DNA of 64,000 nt from Escherichia coli (GTDB taxonomy: Bacteria > Pseudomonadota > Gammaproteobacteria > Enterobacterales > Enterobacteriaceae), in assembly GCF_003334785.1 (NCBI RefSeq), contig NZ_QOWV01000016.1; one strand, given 5' to 3'. Below the pieces are notes generated by a model. The model searched no databases. It worked only from the letters and a program-made list of their open reading frames with translations, and was not told the origin of the DNA. Shown piece after piece: positions 13,182 through 54,053 of this stretch (positions are counted from its first letter, which is position 1; each line of letters begins with the position of its first letter). A program made the position numbers and the translations under genes.

Positions 13182-13836
13182 GCGCACCTCCCCAGATAGC
13201 GTCGATTTGCGCATGGAAATCGCCAGCCACTTGCGCCGGATTTGCCGCGCCTGCCAGTGCCCGCCCGGCAATAAACGCTTTCACGCGGATATCTTTAAAC
13301 AGCGGCAGGTCAGCAGGGGTAATCCCGCCAGTAATGGAAAGCTCAAGGCCGATATCTGAAAGCGCCTTCATGCGTGCCAGATCGGCTTCGCCCCACTGTT
13401 GCCCGCTGGCCTGTGCATCACGACCGCGATGATAAATGGCCTGCCGCACGCCAATACGATGCCAGTCGCGGGCGTCGTCCAGCGTCCAGTTACCGAACAG
13501 CTCTATCTGAATTTCACCCCCGCAGCGTTGTGCCATTGCGTGGCCTTTTTCTACCGTCGCGAGCGGCGCGGCGCAGATGATGGTCATCCAGTTAGCGCCT
13601 GCGCCAAACGCCTGTTGCGCGAGCGTTTCACCAGCGTCGGCGACCTTCCAGTCAGCAACGATGATTTTGTCCGGGCACTGTTCGCGCAAGGCTTTCACCG
13701 CGCCAAGCCCTTCGTTTAAACAGAGAATGGTGCCCGCTTCGACGATATCGACGCTGTCTTTTAACAGCGTCACGTCGCGCTGCGCGGCTTCAAGTGATGA
13801 GTGGTCGAGGGCCAGTTGCAGAAGTGGTCGGCTCAT
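13174..13836 (-). CDS. sgbH: 3-keto-L-gulonate-6-phosphate decarboxylase
   Basis: 220-aa [24 protein letters not shown]...; SD aaggag (complement of 13845..13850) 8 nt before the ATG. Confidence 0.9.
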
Positions 13837-15328
13837 AATGTGTGCTCCTTAATGCGGGCGTGAAAGCCCTGAAGTGCGGCAATGAGATGCTGATAACGTT
13901 GATATTTTTTTGGTAAAGCTGATGGGCGGTCATATCTGGCAGCAGGGTGCGCACCGGGTGTCGCAAGTCACGTTGGGCTTCGCTGAAGTTGTGATAAACC
14001 CCGGTGCCGACGCGGGCGGCAAGGGCCGCACCAAAGCAGCCGGTTTCTTCCACCTGCGGCAGCTCGATACGCAGACCGCTGACGTCCGCCAGCATTTGCA
14101 TCCAGACATCGGAGTGCGCCGGGCCGCCAGTGACGCGTAGGGTGTGAACATCAGTAAAACGTTCGCGCATTCGGTTGAGGTGGGTCATATGGCTGAACAC
14201 CACCCCTTCATAGATGGCCTGCAACAGGTGCGCGCGGGTGTGAATGGCCTGCATCCCGTAGAAACCACTGGTCATCTCGAGTCCGGCGTTGCTGCCGTAC
14301 AGGAACGGCAGGAAAAAGAGATCGCCCCCAGCCTTCGGCAAGCTGGCAACGGCCTGATTGATCTCATCAAACGAGATTTCTCCCCACTGTGCGGTAAACC
14401 ATTCGAGGTTGCCGGAAGAGGTAGGGCTGGCTTCGTGAACGATAAATTCACCATCGTTAACGTAGCGACCATAGACATACGGATGCGCTTCACCGTCACG
14501 TAAACCGCGGGTTATGCCGCTGGTCACCGCCCAGGTCCCCATCACCGCATTGAGGGTAAATTCGTCTTCGATCCCGGCGCAGAGTGCGGTGGAAACCACA
14601 TCAAACAGGCCGCCAACAACGGGCGTACCCGCTTTCAGACCGGTCAGGGCGGCTGTCTGAGCGGTGATCTCCCCGCAGATTTCGGCAGATCCGACAACAG
14701 GCGGCAGGGCGTGATTGATTTCAGCGATCCCCAGCCAGTCGGTGAGGCACGGGTCATATTCCCCAAGACTCATGTTGTAGAGGTTGGACTCGGAAATATT
14801 GCTCTCTTCACAGCCTTTGACGCCAGTTAAACACCAGCGCAGGTAGTCGTGCGTCATCATCACGCAGCCAATTTGCGCGTAGCGTTCTGGTTCGTGCTCT
14901 TTCAGCCAGCGTAACAGCGACACCGGATGCCCGGTCCACAAGGTTTGTCGGGTCAGCGGGTAGAGTTTTTCCGGGATGCCATCTTCCTGCCAGCGACGAA
15001 CGATTTCCATCGCCCGGCGGTCCGAGGACAAAATAGCATTCCCGAGCGGTTTGTCGTTTTTATCCAGCAAAAACAAGCCCTTTCCCTGTGCGGAGATGCC
15101 GATACCGACAATTTGTTCCCCGCTAACACCAGAATGAGTAAGCAGGGCGCGAATGACAGCCATGCAGCATTGCCACAGTTCTGCCATATCGCGCTCTGCC
15201 CAGCCTGGCTGCGGGCTTAATGCGCACAGCGGCAGGCGCTGCACGCCTGCCTCCCGGCCTTCGCGGTCATACAGCCCGGCTTTCAGCCAGCTACCGCCAC
15301 AATCTAACCCCAGCCAGTATTGCGTCAT
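13790..15328 (-). CDS. lyxK: L-xylulose kinase; 3' end apparently frameshifted (512-codon ORF as it stands, see findings)
   Basis: MTQYWLGLDCGGSWLKAGLYD... FGGY-family sugar kinase; the ORF passes an A7 run (plus-strand T7 at 13905..13911) and ends 46 nt inside sgbH. Confidence 0.85.
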   Translation of the reverse strand: MTQYWLGLDCGGSWLKAGLYDREGREAGVQRLPLCALSPQPGWAERDMAELWQCCMAVIRALLTHSGVSGEQIVGIGISAQGKGLFLLDKNDKPLGNAILSSDRRAMEIVRRWQEDGIPEKLYPLTRQTLWTGHPVSLLRWLKEHEPERYAQIGCVMMTHDYLRWCLTGVKGCEESNISESNLYNMSLGEYDPCLTDWLGIAEINHALPPVVGSAEICGEITAQTAALTGLKAGTPVVGGLFDVVSTALCAGIEDEFTLNAVMGTWAVTSGITRGLRDGEAHPYVYGRYVNDGEFIVHEASPTSSGNLEWFTAQWGEISFDEINQAVASLPKAGGDLFFLPFLYGSNAGLEMTSGFYGMQAIHTRAHLLQAIYEGVVFSHMTHLNRMRERFTDVHTLRVTGGPAHSDVWMQMLADVSGLRIELPQVEETGCFGAALAARVGTGVYHNFSEAQRDLRHPVRTLLPDMTAHQLYQKNINVISISLPHFRAFTPALRSTHYEPTTSATGPRPLIT

Positions 15329-40362: not shown

Positions 40363-41214
40363 TTAAACACGAGGCATATAGGTCTGATTCCGATATTCAA
40401 TTGGAGTCAGACCTTTTAATTTCAGGCTAATTCTTCTGCTGTTGTAGTATTCAATATATTCCGTAACAGCATCCTTCAGTTCGCTTATATTACTGAACTC
40501 ATCAAGATAAAAACACTCCGACTTTAAGGTTCCAAAGAAACACTCCACCACAGCATTATCCAGACAATTGCCTTTTCTGGACATGCTTTGTTTAATACCA
40601 TGTTCTTTAAGGATATTTTGATATCTTCTCATACGATACTGCCATCCCTGGTCAGAGTGCAGAACAGGATGCTCGTGAGGATTAAGCTTTTTGAATGCCT
40701 GATCGAGCATATTCTCAACCATGTTCATCACTGGTCTTTCCGAAAGGCTGTAAGAAATAACTTCGTTGTTGAAGAGATCTATTACTGGAGACAAATACAG
40801 CTTGCGCCCATTGACTGCAAATTCAGTAACATCGGTAACCCACTTCTCGTTTGGCCGCGTAGCCTTGAAATCTCTTTGGAGAACATTAGGGGCGGTTTGC
40901 CCTACCTCTCCTCTGTAAGAGCGGTATCGCTTGACCTTAATCGCTGCTTTAAGTGAGAGGGTTCCCATCAGGCGCTGAACAGCTTTATGGTTAATCTGTT
41001 TCCCTTCTCGATGAAGAGACAGCGTTACCCTACGGTATCCGTATCGGCCTCTATTCTCGTGATAAATCTCACTAATACGCTTTTTAACGTCCGCATACTT
41101 GTCAGGCTTGCTGAGAGCCTTTAGATGATAATAAAACGTACTGCGCGGTATCTCCGCAGCCCTGAGAAGCTCATCAAGAGGATAAAACTGCCTTAGCTCG
41201 TTGAGTACTTTCAC
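40363..41214 (-). CDS. insK: IS150 transposase OrfB (DDE catalytic domain)
   Basis: 283-aa ORF recognised. Confidence 0.9.
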
Positions 41215-41732
41215 TTTTTCGTGGGATGAGCTAAGGCTTTCAGCTTTTTTAGATACATAAGCCGCGTTTCAAGAAATCGAACTTGCCTTTCAAGATCCTC
41301 AATGCGTCGGTCTTTTGACAGCTCCAATGCTGATGCCGCTTTTTCTGGATCAACTGATATTGCAATGTTTCTTTTGGTGCCAATCTTGAGCGCGCGTAAA
41401 CCAGCTTCTCCGCGCTCTTCATAGACCTTCAGCCACCTGGCTACAGAACCACTACCAGCAAGCATAAAGTGAGCAGCAGCCTGATTAAGGGACATGTGCT
41501 GCTCGATCACAGCTTTCACGACCTTAATACGCAACTCTGGATCAGCACTAACGCCTTTAGGTTTGGGAATTAAACCTTTTTCTCCATGTTTTTCATAGAG
41601 GGCAACCCATGTCCTGACCTGGGTTCGGGGGACACCAAAACGTGCCGAGATGATCCTGTAACCATCATCAGTTGTGAAGTAGTGATTCACGACTTCAAGG
41701 CGCTTTTCAAAAGGGTATTTTGGCTTTGACAT
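41211..41732 (-). CDS. insJ: IS150 OrfA (HTH DNA-binding)
   Basis: 173-aa ORF; ends ...[14 protein letters not shown] with the A AAA AAG frameshift heptamer at complement(41244..41250). Confidence 0.9.
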   Translation of the reverse strand: MSKPKYPFEKRLEVVNHYFTTDDGYRIISARFGVPRTQVRTWVALYEKHGEKGLIPKPKGVSADPELRIKVVKAVIEQHMSLNQAAAHFMLAGSGSVARWLKVYEERGEAGLRALKIGTKRNIAISVDPEKAASALELSKDRRIEDLERQVRFLETRLMYLKKLKALAHPTKK

Positions 41733-41811: not shown

Positions 41812-41964
41812 ATGCCGCAGAAATATAGATTACTTTCTTTAATAGTGATTTGTTTCACGCTTTTATTTTTCACCTGGATGATAAGAGATTCACTGTGTGA
41901 ATTGCATATTAAACAGGAGAGTTATGAGCTGGCGGCGTTTTTAGCCTGCAAATTGAAAGAGTAA
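41812..41964 (+). CDS. hokA: Hok-family type I toxin peptide (50 aa)
   Basis: MPQKYRLLSLIVICFTLLFFTWMIRDSLCELHIKQESYELAAFLACKLKE from ATG 41812 with SD aggagg 41800..41805; the overlapping mok-like frame (track ORF from 41770) begins inside the IS150 end. Confidence 0.85.
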   Translation: MPQKYRLLSLIVICFTLLFFTWMIRDSLCELHIKQESYELAAFLACKLKE

Positions 41965-42093
41965 GAGTCTTCGGCGGGAAATTATTCCCGCCTTACTTAC
42001 GGCGTTGCGCATTCTCATTGCACCCAAATTTATTCTTCACAAAAATAATAATAGATTTTATTACGCGATCGATTATTTATTTCCTGAAAACAA

Positions 42094-42123
42094 ATAAAAA
42101 AATCCCCGCCAAATGGCAGGGAT
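42094..42123 (-). terminator. rho-independent terminator of cspA
   Basis: On the minus strand, stem atccctgccatttggcggggat followed by a U7 run (plus-strand A-run 42095..42101). Confidence 0.8.
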
Positions 42124-42150
42124 CTTAGATTCTGTGCTTTTAAGCAGAGA

Positions 42151-42363
42151 TTACAGGCTGGTTACGTTACCAGCTGCCGGGCCTTTAGCGCCGCTTTCGA
42201 TGGTGAAGGACACTTTCTGACCTTCGTCCAGAGATTTGTAACCATCGTTCTGGATAGCAGAGAAGTGTACGAACACATCTTTAGAGCCATCGTCAGGAGT
42301 GATGAAGCCGAAGCCTTTGTCAGCGTTGAACCATTTTACGATACCAGCCATTTTACCGGACAT
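42151..42363 (-). CDS. cspA: major cold-shock protein
   Basis: [38 protein letters not shown]... 70 aa with RNP1/RNP2 motifs. Confidence 0.97.
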
Positions 42364-42505
42364 AGTGTATTACCTTTAATAATTAAGTGTGCCTTTCGGC
42401 GATATGGCGTGCTTTACAGATTTTGAAGCGTTAAAGGAATGTGCACTACGAGGGGTATCAACGATAACTCTTGAAGGGACTTGCCTTACTACACTGCTTT
42501 AATGG

Positions 42506-42559
42506 TCTGTACGTCAAACCGTTGATGTGCATTAAGCCACGCATTGGCGGGTGATGCAA
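42506..42559 (-). promoter_or_regulatory. cspA promoter (-35 TTGCAT, 17-bp spacer, -10 CTTAAT) and cold-box element at the start of the ~160-nt 5' UTR
   Basis: Minus-strand reading: ttgcat (complement 42554..42559), cttaat (complement 42531..42536), cold box tgacgtacaga (complement 42506..42516); AT-rich UP-like tract further upstream. Confidence 0.75.
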
Positions 42560-42643
42560 CAATTATTTTTCATATTTATGATTAATCGGTTGGAAAACGG
42601 TCCTGTCATCAGGACCGTAAACAGCAATAAAGTGGATAAAAGT

Positions 42644-42934
42644 CTATTCCATCAACTGCTTACTTAATGCCGGGTTGGCTTGAATCAAACGCATCAATTT
42701 TAGTTCGGCACTTGAAGGCTTCACGCGTCTGGATTCCCATTCCTTTACCATGGCGACTGATACGCCCAAAACCCGGGCGAAATCATCGATTTTTAATCCT
42801 GTCCCTTTTCGTAACTGCTCAATTTCGGTACAGGACGTTGTTCTGTGCGTCAGGGTAATTTTCTGCGTTTCATCTTTAAAAACAATCTGTTCCAGGCTGC
42901 TCAACAGCTCATGCATTGGATCTTTATATTCCAT
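42644..42934 (-). CDS. yiaG: XRE-family HTH transcriptional regulator
   Basis: 96-aa ORF with HTH GLKIDDFARVLGVSVAMVKEWESRR, recognised. Confidence 0.85.
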   Translation of the reverse strand: MEYKDPMHELLSSLEQIVFKDETQKITLTHRTTSCTEIEQLRKGTGLKIDDFARVLGVSVAMVKEWESRRVKPSSAELKLMRLIQANPALSKQLME

Positions 42935-43367
42935 TGAAAACTCCTCAAATCACACTGCGGGATCGTGAATTGCATCGAAGCTCATTAAGAATAGTCGGGA
43001 AAAGCAGACACAGCGGGGTGAAGTCAGGGCATGCTCTGGCTATGATTCGATTCAGCCTGTCATTTAGCGTGACTTATAGCCACCTAACGATCTGATAAAT
43101 GCCGATATATCTCTTACCACTCCTGTTTTGTAAAGATTTCGAAAATCTAACCTTCTGCGAAGGCGTAAATCTCTGGCTACAAAAAAGGCAACGGCACTAT
43201 CATTTTTTAACAATGAAACAACAAATTAACCTTGTTTCATTTTCTCCATGATTTTACCAGGAAGATTACGTAGAAAGGGTATCCTGCAAGCCTGTCCTGG
43301 ACTATCCTTGTCACGTCAGACACGCGTGTGTCGTTGTGCGCTTTTTTTGGGTGAAAGGAGTAAGAAA

Positions 43368-51936: not shown

Positions 51937-53628
51937 ATGAGATACATCAAATCGATTACACAGCAGAAGCTGAGCTTTTTGCTTGCAATCTATATTGGCC
52001 TTTTTATGAATGGCGCGGTTTTTTACCGCCGCTTCGGCAGCTATGCGCACGATTTTACCGTCTGGAAAGGCATTTCTGCTGTTGTTGAACTGGCCGCCAC
52101 CGTACTGGTGACCTTCTTTTTACTACGTCTTCTTTCGCTGTTTGGCCGCCGCAGCTGGCGTATTCTGGCATCGCTGGTGGTGCTCTTTTCCGCAGGTGCC
52201 AGCTATTACATGACCTTCCTTAATGTGGTCATTGGTTATGGCATCATCGCTTCCGTCATGACCACCGATATCGACCTGTCAAAAGAAGTTGTTGGTCTGA
52301 ACTTTATTCTCTGGTTAATCGCCGTTAGTGCATTGCCTCTTATCCTTATCTGGAATAACCGCTGTCGCTACACCTTGCTCCGACAACTGCGAACCCCAGG
52401 GCAGCGTATTCGCAGCCTGGCGGTCGTCGTACTGGCGGGTATTATGGTTTGGGCACCGATTCGTTTGCTGGATATCCAGCAGAAGAAAGTGGAGAGGGCG
52501 ACCGGCGTTGATTTGCCGAGTTATGGCGGTGTCGTAGCGAACTCTTATCTGCCATCAAACTGGCTTTCTGCGTTGGGGCTGTATGCCTGGGCGCGGGTCG
52601 ATGAATCTTCCGATAATAATTCATTGCTTAATCCGGCGAAGAAATTCACTTATCAGGCACCGCAAAACGTTGATGACACTTATGTCGTGTTTATCATCGG
52701 TGAAACCACGCGTTGGGACCATATGGGTATTTTCGGCTATGAGCGTAATACCACGCCGAAACTGGCCCAGGAGAAAAATCTGGCGGCGTTCCGTGGTTAC
52801 TCCTGTGATACCGCAACCAAACTCTCACTGCGTTGCATGTTTGTACGTCAGGGGGGCGCGGAAGATAATCCGCAGCGCACATTAAAAGAACAGAACATTT
52901 TCGCGGTTCTGAAGCAGTTAGGATTCAGTTCTGACCTCTACGCTATGCAGAGCGAAATGTGGTTCTACAGCAACACGATGGCGGACAACATTGCTTATCG
53001 TGAGCAGATTGGTGCGGAGCCACGTAATCGTGGCAAGCCGGTAGATGATATGTTGCTGGTAGACGAAATGCAGCAATCGCTAGGGCGCAACCCGGATGGT
53101 AAGCATCTGATCATTCTGCATACCAAAGGTTCGCATTTTAACTACACCCAGCGTTATCCGCGTAGCTTCGCGCAGTGGAAGCCGGAATGTATTGGTGTTG
53201 ATAGCGGCTGTACCAAAGCGCAGATGATCAACTCCTATGACAACTCGGTGACCTATGTGGATCACTTTATCTCCAGCGTGATTGATCAGGTTCGCGATAA
53301 GAAAGCGATTGTGTTCTACGCAGCTGACCACGGTGAGTCAATTAATGAACGCGAGCACCTGCACGGCACGCCGCGTGAACTGGCACCGCCGGAGCAGTTC
53401 CGCGTACCGATGATGGTCTGGATGTCAGATAAATATCTGGAAAATCCGGCCAATGCGCAGGCGTTTGCGCAGCTGAAAAAAGAAGCCGACATGAAAGTGC
53501 CACGCCGTCACGTAGAGCTGTACGATACCATCATGGGTTGTCTTGGCTATACTTCACCGGATGGTGGAATTAACGAAAACAACAACTGGTGTCACATCCC
53601 GCAGGCAAAAGAGGCAGCGGCTAACTAA
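51937..53628 (+). CDS. eptB: Kdo2-lipid A phosphoethanolamine transferase
   Basis: Recognised N-terminus [26 protein letters not shown] at 51937 (563 codons); sulfatase-like periplasmic domain. Confidence 0.9.

Positions 53629-53719: not shown

Positions 53720-54053
<334 letters not shown>

Follow-up and report, generated by a model that had tools for sequence, protein, structure and literature searches.

Is the control region of cspA intact in this stretch of Escherichia coli DNA (the window, 64,000 nucleotides), and where does that region end? A sequence-only reading had described an intact promoter, cold box and long 5' UTR on the minus strand, upstream of the cspA start codon. We computed the elements, their coordinates, the identity to K-12, the conservation and the membership in Rfam family RF01766 for the window, and took the steps of the mechanism from the literature. 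The region is almost certainly the canonical cspA control unit, in which a sigma-70 promoter with weak hexamers is joined to a 160-nt thermosensing leader and to autoregulation at the cold box. The promoter and leader found here are the standard allele, which is already known.

Over 3601 bp, the window and K-12 MG1655 differ at a single base, position 42348 inside the cspA CDS, and the promoter, cold box and UTR contain no differences. The gene order of MG1655 (yiaF, yiaG, cspA, ysaE/hokA, IS150) is retained, and the K-12 annotation names the upstream gene "yiaG: HTH-type transcriptional regulator". A 601-nt query had matches in 5423 of the 5426 complete E. coli genomes. Of these 5423, 5402 matched the 227 nt from the UP tract to the ATG at 99% identity or more, and at 19 of 25 evenly spaced ranks, with O157:H7, BL21 and K-12 among them, the identity was 100%. 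The description of promoter, cold box and 5' UTR as intact is thus borne out by the identity to K-12, yet it is incomplete, as the determinant of translation in the cold includes the first nine codons, where the substitution at 42348 lies (Table 1).

Table 1. Features of the cspA transcription unit and its upstream neighbour, in window coordinates and ordered along the minus strand
Feature	Position	Strand	Basis or remark
yiaG CDS, 96-aa HTH protein	42644..42934	-	ORF list; stop 42646-42644
Probable yiaG terminator	42597..42618	-	9-bp perfect stem ACGGTCCTG/CAGGACCGT, 4-nt loop
AT-rich UP-element tract ATTAATCATAAATATGAAAAATAATT	42586..42561	-	directly 5' of the -35; 24/26 A/T
-35 hexamer TTGCAT	42559-42554	-	read from sequence; 3/6 to TTGACA
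Spacer, exactly 17 nt	42553..42537	-	read from sequence
TG of extended -10 (TGn)	42539-42538	-	one base 5' of the -10 hexamer
-10 hexamer CTTAAT	42536-42531	-	read from sequence; 4/6 to TATAAT, position 2 is T, not A
Predicted transcription start	42522..42523	-	Rfam model position 1 at 42523 without truncation; published leader lengths
cspA 5' UTR, thermosensing leader, 160 nt	42364..42523	-	Rfam; K-12 identity
Cold-box hairpin GGUUUG-ACGUA-CAGACC, mRNA nt 4-20	42504..42520	-	fold and Rfam structure
Cold box TGACGTACAGA, 11 nt, mRNA nt 8-18	42516..42506	-	exact match
Small hairpin GCCGAAAGGCACA (GCC-GAAA-GGC)	42388..42400	-	Rfam structure; conserved
AU-rich tract CUUAAUUAUU, then Shine-Dalgarno region AAAGGUAAU	42369..42387	-	AAAGGTA invariant; Shine-Dalgarno at 42376-42373
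cspA CDS, 70 aa	42151..42363	-	ORF list; ATG at 42363; K-12 CspA except T6A
Proximal coding element	42338..42354	-	"downstream box" and CspA-binding site 7; holds SNP 42348
"Downstream box" ATGGCTGGTATCGT	42351..42338	-	matches conserved ATGACTGGT... except at SNP 42348
cspA intrinsic terminator	42099..42126	-	12-bp stem, then T run; terminator scan

The window as a whole differs from NZ_CP032667.1 (K-12 MG1655) by 19 substitutions and one deletion over 64 kb. The natural strains VE-F10, PEC399 and OZ121069 match positions 30001-55000 with about one mismatch, as judged from bit scores, and the ERR4899511 assembly shows no difference from the window in the 3.2 kb around cspA, SNP included. The near-identity of the natural strains over 25 kb and the identity of ERR4899511 rule out a mutagenised or artificial K-12 derivative and make the source a K-12-like natural strain, not MG1655. 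A 1-nt deletion relative to K-12 MG1655 lies at about 13905, near the 3' end of lyxK. Because of it, the lyxK ORF (13790-15328, minus strand) is 512 aa long against 498 aa in K-12 and overlaps the next gene; this exact allele recurs in FORC 064 alone out of 12 evenly sampled genomes. Off-diagonal BLAST matches also revealed a perfect 108-nt direct repeat (53778-53885 and 53946-54053, plus strand) beside a tRNA-Pro gene, overlapping a stretch annotated as "RtT sRNA" in K-12.

Closer to cspA, IS150 occupies 40363-41732 (minus strand), with orfA/orfB and a programmed frameshift, just downstream of cspA as in K-12. The toxin gene hokA (41812-41964, plus strand) adjoins IS150, and in several other E. 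coli backgrounds hokA is followed directly by glyS, without the IS. In K-12 and other genomes, RefSeq/PGAP labels cspA as [quoted passage not shown], a naming artefact and a possible trap for automated readers.

The transcription unit is bracketed by two hairpins. The cspA terminator (-19.0 kcal/mol, z = -4.82) coincides with the 3' end of the Rfam match and of the 428-nt transcript. Between yiaG and the cspA promoter, the probable yiaG terminator folds with -15.5 kcal/mol (z = -4.08; 0 of 200 shuffles as stable), and its stem is conserved in Salmonella and Raoultella. Its run of four T consists of the last T of the stem and the next three bases. A generic terminator scan did not list this hairpin in the window because its T run is shorter than five; it is a probable insulator of cspA from read-through.

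In the minus strand of 41900-43100, each of the elements TTGCAT, 17-bp spacer and CTTAAT was found at the position that the sequence-only reading had given, and the yiaG stop, placed there about 85 bp upstream of the promoter, lies 84 bp from the first base of the -35. The distance of about 160 nt between promoter and ATG is right as a leader length, with the start 160 or 159 nt upstream, whereas the -35 itself begins 196 nt upstream. An AT-rich tract had been described as preceding the cold box; the tract exists, but it sits 5' of the -35 and not directly before the cold box, and being upstream of the -35 it falls just outside the interval 42364..42560 considered earlier. The TG of the extended -10 had gone unmentioned.

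The 17-nt spacing lies within the 16-18 nt of sigma-70 promoters, and the TG one base before the -10 and the A+T-rich tract abutting the -35 (against 49% A+T for the whole 64-kb window) are those of the class with an UP element and extended -10. The core hexamers match 7 of 12 sigma-70 consensus positions. A generic sigma-70 scan of the window, whose rule asks for A at position 2 of the -10, passed over the cspA promoter with its CTTAAT, and chance alone would yield 0.68 copies of the whole promoter pattern per window at up to two mismatches. As a departure from chance the motif alone is not statistically compelling, and what carries the promoter call is published work, identity to K-12, conservation and the Rfam match. 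The UP element and the extended -10 would give the cspA promoter its strength. Phadtare and Severinov (2005), cited by title in PMC2613000 and, like Tanabe (1992), one of the original papers, reportedly studied its extended -10 motif, and work by Mitta et al. reportedly bears on its UP element.

The covariance model of RF01766 (cspA thermoregulator) matched positions 42523-42096 on the minus strand over its entire length (1-428 of 428, no truncation), scoring 498 bits (E = 6.4e-142) against a gathering threshold of 78 bits. The model was built on the experimentally defined 428-nt transcript, and the family combines the leader with a cold-shock-domain CDS. Here the CDS encodes a 70-aa CspA with one substitution, and PF00313 (CSD) is hit by the protein that the identical gene encodes in related loci. 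In the Rfam alignment, the predicted start at 42523 falls 8 nt after the -10. Measured from the Rfam 5' end to the ATG, and so from a predicted start, the leader of 160 nt is within the long-5'-UTR class of 145-160 nt. Published accounts give the cspA 5' UTR as 160 nt of a 428-nt transcript (PMC6386945, PMC9947658) or as 159 nt, and values of 159, 160, 155 and 145 nt are given for the cold-inducible cspA/B/G/I class (PMC6719143). The full-length match, the K-12 identity and the 160-nt UTR of the literature agree in upholding the identification of a temperature-sensing cspA leader.

The cold box likewise lies at the start of the leader, in the complement of 42506..42516 as first proposed, where TGACGTACAGA matches exactly at nt 8-18; this is its sole exact copy within the 64-kb window. 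With one mismatch allowed, the window contains three sites against 0.46 expected, a number reached in 1 of 100 shuffles. Two of these, TGACGCACAGA at 42842-42852 (minus strand, inside the yiaG CDS) and a match at 52840-52850 (minus strand), agree at 10 of 11 positions and are probably due to chance. The cold-box hairpin has 6 bp, begins 3 nt from the 5' end and folds with -6.4 kcal/mol (z = -2.61). It is the same in the Rfam consensus structure and in the full-length minimum free energy folds at 37, 15 and 10 C, and is thus, as expected of a cold box, a conserved 5'-proximal sequence able to form a hairpin. Nearer the start codon, we identify the GCCGAAAGGCACA hairpin with the "upstream box" that Yamanaka et al. 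(1999) reportedly described. The AU-rich tract CUUAAUUAUU is a putative site for ribosomal protein S1, and such a site is considered likely in the AU-rich tract before the cspA Shine-Dalgarno sequence (PMC6386945). Earlier work describes the cold box as a conserved hairpin that CspA binds in regulating itself, located in the 5' UTRs of cold-inducible csp genes (PMC5397153, PMC6719143).

We aligned the E. coli locus with its orthologues from Salmonella, Buttiauxella and Raoultella, four genera in all, and with the E. coli paralogues cspB, cspG and cspI. Among the orthologues, the invariant promoter segments were AAA(A/T)AA in the UP tract, TTG in the -35 and TG-n-(C/G)TTAAT; those in the leader were GGTTTGA.G.ACAGA in the cold box, GCCG.AAGG in the hairpin and AAAGGTA in the Shine-Dalgarno region. 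The first cspA codons were also invariant, position 42348 aside, and the alignment broke down 5' of the UP tract. The TTG of the -35, the TG and TTAAT were invariant in cspB, cspG and cspI too. Relative to Salmonella, identity is 100% over the leader's first 25 nt and 93% over its remainder, compared with 96% for the start of the CDS and 52-57% upstream of the -35, so that leader and CDS are conserved to a similar degree. The RF01766 threshold was exceeded by every orthologue and paralogue tested.

Thermodynamic folding recovered less of the expected structure. The isolated 160-nt leader showed no excess stability over shuffled sequence (z = 0.01). In RNAalifold predictions from eight full-length orthologues and paralogues, almost no leader helices were recovered, apart from the GCC/GGC hairpin and a hairpin across the start codon, and the predicted leader pairs contained no compensatory change; the lack of useful covariation is explained by the sequences being too few, too similar or, for the paralogues, too divergent. 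Equilibrium folding of the full-length mRNA (ViennaRNA; 37, 15 and 10 C) did not reproduce the cold form with its exposed Shine-Dalgarno sequence, which stayed paired, whereas a 187-nt fragment moved to another fold at 15 C and below. These negative results restrict what in-silico work can show and do not contradict the known mechanism, a kinetic one fixed in the course of transcription.

In the mechanism drawn from the literature, the weak hexamers (TTGCAT, 17 nt, CTTAAT) would be made strong by the UP element and the extended -10 TGn, and transcription from 42523/42522 would yield a 428-nt monocistronic mRNA. The 160-nt leader and the first codons would fold differently at 37 C and below about 20 C. 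At 37 C the Shine-Dalgarno sequence and AUG would be sequestered through pairing with the coding region, and the published 37 C form has a long helix between leader and coding region that occludes both (PMC9947658, PMC6386945). In the cold form, the Shine-Dalgarno sequence would lie in a loop, allowing better 30S binding and making the mRNA more stable; 30S binding is reported to be about 2.5-fold better for that form (PMC9947658), and the 5' UTR and first 9 codons are necessary and sufficient for translation at 15 C (PMC6386945). The cold box near the 5' end would form its short hairpin, at which accumulated CspA might bind and damp its own expression.

The one departure from K-12 in this unit is at mRNA nt 176, where the minus strand has G in place of A at 42348, changing ACT to GCT (T6A). 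The position lies in ATGGCTGGTATCGT, the "downstream box" in the first codons that is characteristic of the cold-inducible csp class, and within CspA-binding site 7, given as mRNA nt 170-186 (PMC9947658). The allele is absent from all 5423 complete E. coli genomes carrying the region, and apart from it the 10 orthologous and 3 paralogous aligned sequences show no variation at this position. The T6A protein does exist in public data, however, where we read it on 20 contigs with at least four flanking haplotypes, some with and some without IS150. The 90% cluster of the 70-aa CspA has 652 distinct members, and a rare recurrent single substitution is for that reason unremarkable.

Two other readings of the region upstream of the ATG compete with the canonical one. 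TTGCAT and CTTAAT could be a fortuitous weak match, with cspA transcribed mainly by read-through from yiaG or from some other start and the boundary of the leader wrongly drawn. The seven consensus matches, the -10 without its usually critical A at position 2, the silence of the generic scan and the roughly 0.7 chance matches per window would all suit such a reading. However, a strong hairpin with a T run stands between yiaG and the promoter, and the -35 TTG and TG-n-(C/G)TTAAT are invariant in four genera and three paralogues in which the flanks vary. The Rfam model, moreover, aligns end to end from 8 nt past the -10, and published studies of the promoter exist, to judge from their titles as cited in other papers; we find a fortuitous match scarcely credible. 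For the cold box, the rival is functional: its main role may be that of a 5'-terminal stem-loop shielding the mRNA against 5'-end-dependent decay, and not that of a specific operator for CspA or of an attenuation site. In favour of a shield, every fold places a hairpin at this motif, 3 nt from the 5' end, and CspA binds 11 reported sites on the mRNA and not just the cold box (PMC9947658). The stem is also conserved by identity with no compensatory change, and the data therefore cannot separate recognition of structure from recognition of sequence. Against a mainly protective role stand the statement in PMC5397153, which cites Jiang 1996 and Fang 1998, that CspA down-regulates itself by binding this hairpin, and the overlap of CspA site 1 (mRNA nt 12-36) with the 3' half of the cold box (PMC9947658). 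We regard that role as rather unlikely to be the main one, and shield and operator are compatible, not exclusive.

A further reading accepts that everything upstream of the ATG is intact and holds that the SNP at 42348 alters cold induction in this strain. Over 3.6 kb nothing else separates the window from K-12, and, judged from bit scores, the SNP is close to the sole mismatch to the nearest natural genomes over 25 kb. It is missing from the complete genomes at a site that is otherwise invariant in the alignments, it lies inside the nine codons required for translation at 15 C as well as in CspA site 7, and it replaces a U-A pair in the Rfam hairpin by U-G. The predicted effects on folding are slight, however: across full-length and 187-nt RNAs at 37, 15 and 10 C (ViennaRNA), the K-12 and window alleles differ by at most about 1 kcal/mol, and the pairing probabilities of the Shine-Dalgarno sequence and AUG barely shift. 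Public assemblies carry the allele on at least four haplotype backgrounds, and it is therefore tolerated. The equivalent residue differs in paralogues that are not cold-inducible, such as CspC and CspE, and it varies within the CspA 90% cluster, which has little bearing on function. The original base-pairing model of the downstream box, furthermore, has been refuted (discussed in PMC6386945). Altered cold induction thus appears quite unlikely, and we consider it very unlikely that T6A is a functional variant retuning cold-shock translation or CspA autoregulation; it is probably a neutral rare allele.

The canonical reading of the region has little import beyond correct annotation. The promoter and leader of cspA belong to the best-characterised cold-shock control elements of bacteria and are the basis of pCold-type expression vectors. 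Two points concern annotation more widely. Generic sigma-70 consensus scanners overlook the cspA promoter, although it is very strong, because its strength would lie in the UP element and extended -10 and not in the core hexamers. An "intact leader" does not span the whole cis-acting unit, which reaches into the first nine codons, and these hold the strain's only private substitution in the region.

Among known systems, the locus is closest to E. coli K-12 cspA (RF01766; Giuliodori et al. 2010): the sequence is identical from the yiaG stop to the ATG, the model match is full length and the neighbours yiaG, hokA and IS150 are shared, the sole difference being the one base in codon 6 (42348, T6A). 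The paralogues cspB, cspG and cspI resemble it in their long leaders, in an extended -10 of the form TG-n-GTTAAT, in a -35 of the form TTGC.. and in ATGACTGGT at codons 5-7, as in the cspA orthologues. The cold boxes of cspB (GGTTTGAAGAACAGAC) and cspG (GGTTTGAAAGACAGAC) are 5'-proximal like that of cspA and follow the form GGTTTGA...ACAGAC, and both genes share the GCCGAAAGGC hairpin with cspA; in the cspI copy analysed, the cold box is degenerate (GGTTTGTTACAAA) and the hairpin reads GCCCAAGGGC. The middle of the leader is largely unalignable between cspA and these paralogues, which score 113-160 bits with RF01766 against 498. Other RNA thermometers (ROSE, fourU and the rpoH mRNA) likewise use cis-acting mRNA structure to alter access to the Shine-Dalgarno sequence and AUG with temperature. 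Those elements open by melting on warming, whereas for the cspA leader translatability rises in the cold. The choice between the cspA folds is thought to be made during transcription (PMC9947658).
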